Source: Enterobacteria phage WA13 | Sequence record: NC_007821.1 | Reading direction: 5' to 3' (one strand) | Length of the DNA: 6,068 nt | Shown: piece by piece, positions 3,089 through 6,068 of the stretch | Layout of the letters: every line of letters starts with the position of its first letter | Position numbering within the stretch: position 1 is the first letter of the stretch | Notes under the pieces: generated by a model | What the model was told of the DNA's origin: nothing | The model's input: only the letters and a program-made list of their open reading frames with translations | Database searches by the model: none | Made by a program: the position numbers and the translations under genes

Positions 3089-4372
3089 ATGTCAAACGTG
3101 CAAACTTCCGCTGAACGTATTCCTCACGACCTTTCTCATCTGGTTTTTGATGCAGGCAAAATTGGTCGTTTAAAGGTTGTTTCTTGGACTCCTGTTGTTG
3201 CAGGTGATTCTTTTGAGCTTGATATGATTGGCGCTATTCGCCTTTCCCCGCTTCGTCGTGGCCTTGCTGTTGACTCTCGTGTTGACCTGTTCACGTTTTA
3301 TGTCCCTCATCGTCATGTATATGGTGAGCAGTGGATTGATTTTATGAAGCAAGGTGTTGATGCTGCTCCTTTGGCCCCTGTTCAGTGCTCTCGCGGTTGG
3401 GATAGTGCTCAGTATCTTGCTACTATTCCGTCTAGTAACTTAAAGGTTCCTAAGTTTCTTCATCAAGGTTACCTGAACATTTACAATAATTACTTTAAAG
3501 CTCCGTGGATGGATGACCTGACTTATGCCAACCCGTCTAATATGGAGGGTGAAGATGTTCGTTTTGGTGTTCGTGCATGTAACTTGAAAACTATTTGGAC
3601 TGCTCCGCTTCCTCCGGATACTGAAACCTCTCATTCTATGGAGACTGAAACCAACTCCATTGACATTATGGGTTTGCAGGCCGCTTATGCTCAATTACAT
3701 ACTGAGCAGGAGCGTGATTACTTCATGACTCGTTATCGTGATATTGTTAACGAATTTGGAGGTAGTACTTCTTATGATGCGGATAATCGTCCTTTGCTTG
3801 TTATGCATTCTGAGTTCTGGGCCTCAGGCTATGATGTTGACGGCACCGACCAAAGCTCTCTCGGTCAGTTCTCCGGTCGTGTCCAGCAGACGTTTAAGCA
3901 TTCAGTACCGCGATTCTTCTGCCCTGAGCATGGCACTATGTTCACACTCGCATTGGTCCGCTTCCCGCCGACTCATGAAATGGAGATGCATTACTTAGTT
4001 GGTAAAGAAGATTTGACTTATACTGATTTGGCTTGTGACCCTGCTTTGATGGCTAACTTGCCTCCTCGTGAGGTTAATATGTCTCAGTTCTTCCATTCTG
4101 GAAGTGCTAGTGCTAAGTTTAAGATCGCTGAAGGTCAGTGGTATCGCATGCAGCCTGATCGCGTTGCATTGCCGTATAACTATCTTGATGGTTTTCCGTT
4201 CTATAGCGCGATTCCGTCTGATGATATTAAGCAGCGCGTTCTGGTTAATACTGATAACTACGATGAGGTTTTCCAGTCTATGCAGCTTGCGCACTGGAAT
4301 ATGCAGACTAAGTTTAATTGCACCATTTATCGTAATATGCCGACCACTCGCGACTCTATTATGACCTCTTGA
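3089..4372 (+). CDS. F: Major capsid protein F
   Basis: 427-aa ORF. Long stretches match phiX174 F (MSN.QT.AER.PHDLSH, FTFYVPHRHVYGEQWI, GYLNIYNNYFKAPWM, DIMGLQAAYA, LVMHS..WASGYDVDGTDQ.SLGQFSGRVQQT.KHSVPRFF.PEHGTMFTLALVRFPPT, C-terminal PTTRDSIMTS). Confidence 0.95.
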   Translation: MSNVQTSAERIPHDLSHLVFDAGKIGRLKVVSWTPVVAGDSFELDMIGAIRLSPLRRGLAVDSRVDLFTFYVPHRHVYGEQWIDFMKQGVDAAPLAPVQCSRGWDSAQYLATIPSSNLKVPKFLHQGYLNIYNNYFKAPWMDDLTYANPSNMEGEDVRFGVRACNLKTIWTAPLPPDTETSHSMETETNSIDIMGLQAAYAQLHTEQERDYFMTRYRDIVNEFGGSTSYDADNRPLLVMHSEFWASGYDVDGTDQSSLGQFSGRVQQTFKHSVPRFFCPEHGTMFTLALVRFPPTHEMEMHYLVGKEDLTYTDLACDPALMANLPPREVNMSQFFHSGSASAKFKIAEGQWYRMQPDRVALPYNYLDGFPFYSAIPSDDIKQRVLVNTDNYDEVFQSMQLAHWNMQTKFNCTIYRNMPTTRDSIMTS

Positions 4373-4378
4373 TTATGT

Positions 4379-4392
4379 GGGGCTTCGGCCCC
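4379..4392 (+). terminator. F-G spacer hairpin GGGGCTTCGGCCCC (second identical copy); likely weak terminator / mRNA-stabilising structure
   Basis: Same 14-nt sequence as 3060-3073, followed by cTTTaagg and the G Shine-Dalgarno AAGGA (4396-4400). Confidence 0.5.
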
Positions 4393-4409
4393 CTTTAAGG
4401 ATATTGATT

Positions 4410-4955
4410 ATGTTTCAAGTTTATGTATCTAAACATGTTGCTCCGTTCACCTCTGTGAATCGTGCCTTTTCTATTGCCCCTGCCGCCAATCCCGAAGTTG
4501 TTAACTCTGGTGAGATTGTTGCAGGTCGTTCTACTTTTCGCATTGCTTCTTCTATTGCTTCTGCTTCCAATGGTAGTGGTTTTGCTTTTGTTCAGATGAT
4601 GGATCCGAATTCTCCTGATTCTCAGCAGGTTTTCTCTGTTGCTGCTTCGTTGTCCTTTAGTGTTGATTCGAATTATATTCCTTGTGTTGTTCGTTTTGAG
4701 AGCACTGTTGCTCAGCCTACCAGCTTTGATATTGCAACCGCTGATTTTATTCCGGTTGAGGCTTCTGCCCTTTCTCCTCGTGCGCTTAGCGTTCGCGATT
4801 GTGTTACCGTTGATGTTAAGCCTCGTACTGAAGGCAATAATGTTTTTGTTGGTGTGGTTTTCTTCTCTGCTGCCGCTAATGCTGGTAATGTCACTGGTGT
4901 TGTTTCGATGGCTCAGGTTGACCACGAAGTTACAGCTTTGCAGCCGCTTAAATAA
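4410..4955 (+). CDS. G: Major spike protein G
   Basis: ATG 4410 (MFQVYVSKH.., compare phiX174 MFQTFISRH..) with AAGGA 9 nt upstream, TAA 4953-4955, 181 aa. Conserved CVVRFES, VRDCVTVDVKPRT.GNNVFVG and C-terminal LQPLK. The supplied ORF start at 4377 is a GTG inside the upstream hairpin and is not used. Confidence 0.9.
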   Translation: MFQVYVSKHVAPFTSVNRAFSIAPAANPEVVNSGEIVAGRSTFRIASSIASASNGSGFAFVQMMDPNSPDSQQVFSVAASLSFSVDSNYIPCVVRFESTVAQPTSFDIATADFIPVEASALSPRALSVRDCVTVDVKPRTEGNNVFVGVVFFSAAANAGNVTGVVSMAQVDHEVTALQPLK

Positions 4956-5090
4956 AAGGCTGCCGCACTCCCGGTTAGATGCCTGCCTAGTGTAGGGCAG
5001 ACCGAGCCGTACGGAGATACCCGATAAACTAGGAACGTGGAAGGCGCAAGCCGCCTTCCCTCCTGCTAAGCCCCAAAAGGAGTTACAGCG
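4956..5090 (+). other. G-H intergenic region with stable hairpins; probable complementary (-) strand origin (DnaG primase-dependent, G4-type)
   Basis: 135-nt non-coding spacer, far longer than J-F or F-G. Contains a perfect 8-bp GC-rich hairpin (ggaaggcg / caagc / cgccttcc, 5039-5059), the palindrome ccgtacgg (5007-5014) and a ctgcc/ggcag stem-loop (4984-5000). From memory, the primase-dependent origin of alpha3/St-1/phiK maps between G and H, whereas G4 has it between F and G. H Shine-Dalgarno AAGGAG at 5077-5082. Confidence 0.4.
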
Positions 5091-6068
5091 ATGTTAGGTG
5101 CCGTTGTAGGTGGTATTGCTTCAGCCTTAGCTGGTGGAGCCGCTTCTAAGCTGTTTGGTGGTAAACCTGCCGCTCAAGCCGCTACCGAGTCCTCTGGCCT
5201 TTCTAATGGTCAAGGCGTTATTGGTATGGATCAAGATGCTGGTATTCAGTCAGCTATTCAGGGCTCTAATGTTCCCAATGGTCAGATTCCTGCCCCCACG
5301 CAGACTGGTGGCGTTATGTCTGATGCTAAAAATATGATTAAGAATGCTGGTAAAGATTTGCTTGATGGCGTTATGACCGCTGGAAGTGATCGCATTAAGC
5401 AGGCATTGGTTGATAAGTTGAGTGGTAACGATGCAAAGAAACAAGGACAAGCAACCCGTGATTACTTGGCTGCGGCCTTCCCTGAGCTCAATGCATGGGA
5501 ACGTGCTGGAGCTGGTGCTTCCGGTGCCGGATTGGAGTCTTCCGGCCAGAATCAGCAAAAGGAGTTGATGCGTATGCAGCTGGATACTCAGAAGGATATT
5601 GCTAAGATGCAAATGCATAATAATTTGCAGATTGCTGGTATTCAGTCCGCTACTTCTCGCGAGAATACGAAGGATTCAGTTTATGCTCAGAATGAGATGC
5701 TTAAATTTAATCAACAGGAGTCACAGGCACGCGTTGAGTCTATCCTCGCCAACACTGACCTTACGGCTAAACAGGCTGCCCATGAAATTATGAGAATGGC
5801 CCTTACTCGTGCTCAGGAGACTGGTCAGCATTTAACTAATAGTCAGATTATGGCATTGGAGAAAAAAGTTTATGCAGAAATCGGAAAAATTCATCAAGAT
5901 ACTCAAAACGCTCGTTATGGTAGCTCTCAAGTTACTGCTGCGGCGAAAGATGTTACGAATATGATTACCGATGCCACTTCTGGTGCTGCCGATTGGGTCT
6001 CTCAACAGTGGAATTCTTTCTTTAAAGATGGCAAGTCTAATGGTATTCCCCTCAATACCAGAAAATAA
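5091..6068 (+). CDS. H: Minor spike / DNA pilot protein H
   Basis: 325-aa ORF with AAGGAG 8 nt upstream. Matches phiX174 H (M.GA..GGIASALAGGA.SKLFGG, RDYLAAAFPELNAWERAGA, IAGIQSATSR.NTKD.VYAQNEML, QNARYGSS). The stop codon TAA is the last three bases of the window. Confidence 0.92.
   Translation: MLGAVVGGIASALAGGAASKLFGGKPAAQAATESSGLSNGQGVIGMDQDAGIQSAIQGSNVPNGQIPAPTQTGGVMSDAKNMIKNAGKDLLDGVMTAGSDRIKQALVDKLSGNDAKKQGQATRDYLAAAFPELNAWERAGAGASGAGLESSGQNQQKELMRMQLDTQKDIAKMQMHNNLQIAGIQSATSRENTKDSVYAQNEMLKFNQQESQARVESILANTDLTAKQAAHEIMRMALTRAQETGQHLTNSQIMALEKKVYAEIGKIHQDTQNARYGSSQVTAAAKDVTNMITDATSGAADWVSQQWNSFFKDGKSNGIPLNTRK

Follow-up and report, generated by a model that had tools for sequence, protein, structure and literature searches.

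The G-H intergenic spacer of the alpha3-like microvirus WA13 as a probable G4-type complementary-strand origin

Results and Discussion

Gene boundaries and composition of the spacers

The window analysed here is the whole 6068 nt genome of Enterobacteria phage WA13 (NC_007821.1), a complete alpha3-like microvirus (Bullavirinae, Alphatrevirus). Its full-length identity to coliphage WA45 is 99.3%, with 91-94% identity to other isolates of the Rokyta collection and ~85% to alpha3, phiK and St-1. From the list of open reading frames and the annotation of WA45, genes A (759-2243), F (3089-4372), G (4410-4955) and H (5091-6068) were delimited, with the ATG start codons of G and H at 4410 and 5091. 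The F-G and G-H boundaries are at identical coordinates in the WA45 annotation. The F-G spacer is 37 nt long (4373-4409, between the end of F at 4372 and the start of G at 4410) and the G-H spacer 135 nt (4956-5090, between the end of G at 4955 and the start of H at 5091), which are the lengths given in the initial annotation. The G-H spacer is richer in G+C than the WA13 genome as a whole (59.3% versus 44.8%). On the + strand, which is the sense strand of all genes, it holds the entire putative G4-type complementary-strand origin cassette, which fills it exactly, together with the ribosome-binding site of H (Shine-Dalgarno AAGGAG, 5077-5082, + strand, 8 nt upstream of ATG 5091). The same layout, with the cassette between G and H and a short F-G spacer, is seen in 11 isolates and three uncultivated genomes.

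The F-G spacer (4373-4409, + strand) serves as the contrast case. It carries a hairpin, GGGGC-TTCG-GCCCC, with a perfect 5-bp GC stem and a TTCG loop, followed on the 3' side by TTT. This looks like a small terminator or an mRNA-stabilising hairpin after gene F, and it was not recovered by a terminator consensus scan that demands at least five T.

The 758-nt H-A "intergenic" region (1-758) contains two open reading frames on the + strand, at 65-433 and 523-699. The longer one (122 aa, preceded by AGGAG) is uninterrupted in 11 of the 12 isolates, as well as in three IMG/VR genomes, and its diversity at the three codon positions is 0.147/0.100/0.318. The shorter one (58 aa, GTG start, GGAGG upstream) is intact in all 12, with corresponding values of 0.055/0.021/0.192. 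An overlapping frame at 138-509 is not conserved. Searches of the two against Pfam and PHROG gave no match, and neither frame is present in G4, ID2 or phiX174. The classic alpha3, St-1 and phiK records and those of the Rokyta isolates leave the H-A region unannotated; in Lilleven (MK629527) both frames are annotated as hypothetical proteins. Judging from their conservation patterns, they look like real genes.

Homology of the G-H spacer to known origins

The G-H spacer aligns end to end with that of alpha3 at 97% identity, and over its whole length with those of St-1 and phiK at 86-87%. Identity to the F-G spacers of G4, ID52 and NC19 is 71-74% overall (72% to the G4 type). The alignment with the G4 spacer consists of two blocks of 81% and 85% identity, split by a 14-column stretch at ~31%. 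BLASTN is too weak across the G4 and alpha3 groups, as the G4 spacer used as query does not reach the alpha3-likes at E = 1e-5, and WA13 used as query reaches only the ID52/NC6 subgroup among the G4-likes; a profile and direct alignment were therefore needed to show homology. The profile (nhmmer) was built from just the three G4-type F-G spacers, of G4, ID52 and NC19, and is thus independent of any alpha3-like sequence. It has a single match in WA13, at 4955-5087 on the + strand (E = 1e-20, 70 bits), and no other match in the genome on either strand. Neither this profile nor a phiX-type profile matches the F-G spacer at 4373-4409.

The initial annotation had tentatively placed the complementary-strand origin in the G-H rather than the F-G spacer and had proposed alignment with the G4, St-1, phiK and alpha3 origins as the check. 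That alignment does reveal the similarity (86-97% to alpha3, St-1 and phiK; E = 1e-20 with the G4-type profile), and the placement is supported by this homology and by a 37-nt F-G spacer free of any origin match. Three uncultivated alpha3-like genomes from IMG/VR have a visibly near-identical cassette between G and H, while their G proteins are only ~36% identical to that of WA13.

Stem-loop I and its loop motif

The three predicted hairpins of G4 were mapped onto an alignment of 15 sequences (12 alpha3-like and 3 G4-like). Stem-loop I (5039-5059, + strand) is the perfect 8-bp stem noticed in the initial annotation, with arms GGAAGGCG (5039-5046) and CGCCTTCC (5052-5059) around the 5-nt loop CAAGC, and is paired in all 15 phages. 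One compensatory pair is found in the stem, A-T in the alpha3-likes and C-G in the G4-likes. Folded alone as DNA, it is stable (-9.4 kcal/mol, z = -3.3). It is also the sole perfect hairpin of at least 8 bp with a 3-8 nt loop in the WA13 genome; as ~0.6 perfect hairpins of at least 8 bp are expected per dinucleotide-shuffled genome, stem I on its own is not beyond chance.

A "mini-hairpin" motif, GCGNNAGC or GCGNAGC, has been described for the origins of G4, St-1 and alpha3 (PMC13037366). According to the same 2026 review, hairpin I of the St-1 and alpha3 origins is an 8-bp stem around GCGTTAGC, and G4 has GCGAAAGC (PMC13037366). The published hairpin I was tied to genome records by exact match: the 21-mer GGAAGGCGTTAGCCGCCTTCC occurs once each in the alpha3, St-1 and phiK genomes, within the G-H spacer. 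In WA13 the motif GCGNNAGC takes the form GCGCAAGC at 5044-5051, which still fits. The middle of the loop varies across the 15 phages (CA, TT, TA, AA, or a single A or T), the flanking GCG...AGC is invariant, and one or other form of the motif is retained in all sequences compared. A stable 8-bp stem-loop I with the characteristic loop motif, one of the features that define the G4 type, is thus present in WA13.

Stem-loop III and the missing stem-loop II

The homolog of stem-loop III lies at 4958-5003 (+ strand), ~100 nt 5' of the start, as in a G4-type origin, though it is energetically weak. Its base helix pairs 4958-4964 (GGCTGCC) with 4996-5003 (GGCAGACC), with A5001 bulged. Over the 15 phages, this helix (7 bp, one bulge) is 83% paired, with compensatory changes of C-G to T-A in four sequences including WA13, and of G-C to A-T in NC28. 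Neither the covariation score nor the number of sequence-by-pair cells in which both sides have changed was reached in any of 500 column shuffles, and when the register is slid the paired fraction falls to 30-47%. Folded in isolation, hairpin III is marginal (-7.0 kcal/mol, z = -0.26), and a local CTGCC/GGCAG hairpin is a competing fold. RNAalifold offers an alternative made of a local hairpin (columns 35-40/47-52) and a long-range closing helix, in which the local hairpin is kept only via T-G wobbles. The G4-like base helix is preferred as the probable structure, since its variation is truly compensatory and T-G wobbles are weak in DNA, although the thermodynamic support for it is not strong.

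Position 4988 is T in WA13 and C in all 14 other aligned origins, with T also present in one uncultivated genome. Whichever version of hairpin III forms, one of its pairs is weakened by the change from C to T. The minimum-energy fold contains a pairing of CCTAGT (4986-4991) with ACTAGG that requires the uncommon T4988 and is broken in every other isolate compared; it was regarded as fortuitous, as was the pairing of 4958-4963 with 4940-4945, at the end of G. Despite 99.3% genome identity, WA45 differs from WA13 at 4 of the 135 spacer positions (at 4988, within 4999-5001 and at 5013), and two variants occur in WA45 alone: GGGCATGCC, by which the bulge of hairpin III is displaced, and TACAGAG.

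For the pairs of hairpin II, 45.6% of cells are paired, all in the three G4-type sequences. Stem-loop II is missing from WA13, where the corresponding region folds at -1.5 kcal/mol, and likewise from alpha3, St-1 and phiK. As these three lack hairpin II and yet are reported to be primase-dependent, hairpin II appears to define G4 itself and not the class.

Taken as a whole, the G-H spacer folds with z = -1.5, a stability equalled or bettered by 16 of 200 shuffles, compared with z = -4.7 for the G4 spacer. The initial description of the spacer as packed with GC-rich hairpins is therefore correct as to GC-richness (59.3%) and as to hairpin I, which is robust, but "packed" is overstated, as hairpin III is marginal and 5004-5040 is essentially unstructured.

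Conservation and the central block

In place of stem-loop II of G4, WA13 has a central block (5004-5038, + strand) that is conserved in sequence and has no structure (-1.5 kcal/mol). Among 12 alpha3-like genomes, pairwise diversity is 0.068 at 4956-5005, 0.038 at 5006-5038 and 0.051 at 5039-5074, and at third codon positions it is 0.296 in G and 0.254 in H, which puts variability in the spacer core 4-7 times below that of the third codon positions of these genes. The least variable part of the spacer is 5006-5038 (diversity 0.038), despite its lack of predicted structure. Variability is confined to the last 16 nt before the start codon of H (5075-5090), with a diversity of 0.294. The conservation of the unstructured stretch 5004-5038 might, though this is doubtful, reflect a sequence-specific contact or a different phasing of SSB, and not a mere spacer. 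It is the homology (E = 1e-20) and the conservation, and not the folding energy, that set the G-H region beyond chance.

The predicted primer start

In the GenBank record of G4, an "RNA primer of replication" is annotated at 3970-3997 and an "origin of compl. strand synthesis" at 3998, in the F-G spacer. Alignment to this annotated start puts the template trinucleotide 5'-CTG-3', which the initial annotation had left unplaced, at 5063-5065 of WA13 (+ strand), opposite C3996-T3997-G3998 of G4 in the alignment. By sequence position, the CTG thus lies just 3' of stem-loop I, as in a G4-type origin, and the spacing between stem I and CTG is 3 nt in both WA13 and G4. CTG lies 105 nt from the base of hairpin III in WA13 and 103 nt from it in G4, and the context of CTG, CCCTCCTGCTAAGCC, is nearly invariant in the alignment. 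By analogy with G4, the first primer nucleotide (pppA) is predicted to lie opposite T5064. The template of a full-length 28-nt primer would be 5037-5064 (+ strand), read leftwards through stem-loop I, and the predicted WA13 primer would be 5'-AGGAGGGAAGGCGGCUUGCGCCUUCCAC-3', by comparison with the annotated 28-nt G4 primer, AGUAGGGACGGCGGCUUUCGCCGUCCAU.

Alternative readings of the spacer

As mRNA has the sense of the viral strand, stem-loop I forms in RNA too, and the G-H spacer ends in the ribosome-binding site of H, a protein needed in fewer copies than G in microvirus biology. These points would fit a spacer that is mainly an RNA-level element, whether a terminator, attenuator or stabiliser, or a means of lowering translation of H relative to G, with the origin absent or secondary. 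However, a promoter/terminator consensus scan of 4200-5300 found nothing in the G-H spacer, with two promoter-like matches, inside G and F, and termination as the main function was dropped from consideration on account of this empty scan. Stem I is followed by CTCCTGCTAAGCC, with no T run. A scan of the whole WA13 genome against Rfam gave no match, as would be expected of an element that works as DNA. Conservation peaks in the unstructured central block and around CTG and is lowest beside the ribosome-binding site, which is the opposite of what translation control would give, and in G4 the same cassette, there annotated as a DNA origin on experimental grounds, precedes gene G. A mainly RNA-level function is therefore highly improbable, although a secondary role of this kind, or a dual one, is possible.

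The complementary strand might alternatively start elsewhere, in the H-A region or at a PriA site of the phiX174 type, leaving the G-H module as a relic. The H-A region, at 758 nt, is very long for a 6-kb genome, and members of the subfamily such as phiX174, ID2 and ID18 use a different module in the F-G spacer. Nevertheless, a profile of the phiX174/ID2/ID18 F-G spacers has no match in WA13 (E up to 10) or in any alpha3-like genome, the G4-type profile matches WA13 exactly once, and the H-A region looks largely protein-coding. Nor would a relic be 4-7 times more conserved than synonymous sites or keep its compensatory pairs, and we regard a start elsewhere as extremely improbable. It is scarcely conceivable that the hairpin at 5039-5059 is just a chance inverted repeat in a GC-rich spacer, with no specific function. 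The count of perfect hairpins of at least 8 bp is indeed close to the shuffled level (0.6 expected), and the z-score of the whole spacer is only -1.5, but the hairpin is paired in 15 of 15 phages from two genera with an A-T/C-G compensatory exchange, and it keeps a defined loop motif at a fixed distance of 3 nt from the conserved CTG.

Identity as an origin and proposed mechanism

By its homology, position, strand, conservation and compensatory changes, the G-H spacer is very probably the G4-type complementary (minus) strand origin of this alpha3-like microvirus. All the defining features of such an origin that can be tested by sequence are present, except stem-loop II of G4. The primase-dependent negative-strand origins of St-1, phiK and alpha3 were reportedly sequenced and published by Sims, Capon and Dressler in J Biol Chem in 1979. 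The type is thus already known, having been described in that year for these three phages, of which WA13 is a close relative. The 1979 work is cited for the St-1 and alpha3 origins in the recent review (PMC13037366).

In G4, DnaG alone primes SSB-coated DNA, starting at the T of 5'-CTG-3', 3' of three stem-loops (PMC6783573). The hairpins exclude SSB and provide sites for two molecules of primase; the primer is up to 28 nt long (PMC6783573). In phiX174, PriA, PriB, PriC and DnaT load DnaB (from DnaB-DnaC) at the primosome assembly site before primase acts (PMC5778457). WA13 would use the same route as G4, but rely on two hairpins where G4 has three. Once the cell is infected, host SSB would coat the circular (+) strand of the virus, and stem-loop I (5039-5059) together with the 5' stem-loop III (4958-5003) would resist and phase SSB, leaving DNA exposed. 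DnaG primase would bind this exposed DNA together with SSB, with no involvement of DnaB, DnaC or a PriA primosome, read the CTG at 5063-5065 and start the RNA primer with pppA opposite T5064. The primer would be copied leftwards through stem-loop I, to a length of up to ~28 nt, and DNA polymerase III would extend it round the circle to give the replicative form. Both the protein requirements and the exact 5' end of the primer are carried over to WA13 from G4 and from St-1, phiK and alpha3, and so are probable by analogy. As hairpin II is missing, the SSB-phasing geometry of G4 may not carry over exactly and may differ here.

The GenBank records of alpha3-like phages, including WA45, leave the origin unmarked, and the WA13 coordinates can be transferred to them. 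The comparison of the G4 and alpha3 types also amounts to a natural experiment, which shows that hairpin II can be dispensed with, unlike the spacing, the CTG context, hairpin I and the base of hairpin III. It is possible, though doubtful, that the alpha3-type origin is a mechanistic variant and at the same time, given its occurrence ahead of gene G in G4-type phages, ahead of gene H in the alpha3 type and in plasmid records, a self-contained priming module that moves horizontally.

Comparison with known systems

The origins of alpha3, St-1 and phiK are the closest to that of WA13. They too lie in a G-H spacer, of 135-136 nt, with an 8-bp hairpin I, the CCCTCCTGCTAAGCC start region and the same central block, and without hairpin II. 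WA13 differs from them by point changes only, namely the loop GCGCAAGC in place of GCGTTAGC and T for C at 4988, along with one extra C in the C/A run ahead of the ribosome-binding site.

The origin of G4 (G4oric, NC_001420 nt 3884-4019, an F-G spacer of 136 nt) resembles that of WA13 in being a viral-strand cassette with stem-loops I and III, and the homology shared by the two extends from just past the upstream stop codon into the downstream Shine-Dalgarno. However, the cassette is between F and G in G4 and one gene further downstream, between G and H, in WA13. G4 also has a 6-bp stem-loop II, the 3' arm of which is replaced in WA13 by unrelated unpaired sequence, and its spacer folds far more stably (z = -4.7 versus -1.5).

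Outside the phages, the G4-type single-strand initiation (ssi) signals of plasmids are primase-dependent priming signals on single-stranded DNA. Four records of small E. coli plasmids, of 9.65 kb and 8.0 kb, carry a homolog of the WA13 origin over 117 nt, for example at CP057337.1 1083-1201 (minus strand, 82.6% identity over 117 nt) and NZ_CP062859.1 7025-7143 (minus strand, 74%). These homologs retain the CCCTCCTGCTAAGCC start region and the helix at the base of hairpin III, but the replicons are non-viral and their hairpin I is reshaped, with a GCGAAGC motif at its centre. The plasmid cassette is opposite in strand to all genes, in a gap of 1.7 kb that carries no annotation. Among the products of the 9.65-kb element are an AlpA-like HTH protein, a Sf6-type small-terminase-like protein and a serine recombinase, gene content that suggests a phage satellite. 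The plasmid cassettes themselves are putative priming signals, by their similarity to the phage origins.

The primosome assembly site of phiX174 (PAS, or n'/PriA site), in the F-G spacer, does the same job of starting the complementary strand on SSB-coated DNA. Like the WA13 origin, it is an intergenic hairpin region among late genes, and it also holds mini-hairpin motifs of the GCGAAGC type, but a profile search detects no sequence relationship between it and the WA13 spacer. The F-G spacers of ID2 (NC_007817, 3830-3928) and ID18 (NC_007856, 3837-3928) align with that of phiX174 and, with AAGCG(C)AAGCGCGTTAGC, are of the primosome-site type. Nowhere in the ID2 and ID18 genomes does the G4-type profile find a match. 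As both phages are classed in Gequatrovirus, two distinct kinds of minus-strand origin module thus occupy the F-G spacer within a single genus. The two modules differ in the proteins they call for: phiX174 needs PriA, PriB, PriC, DnaT and DnaB-DnaC (PMC5778457), whereas the G4 type, to which the WA13 spacer very probably belongs, needs only SSB and primase (PMC6783573).
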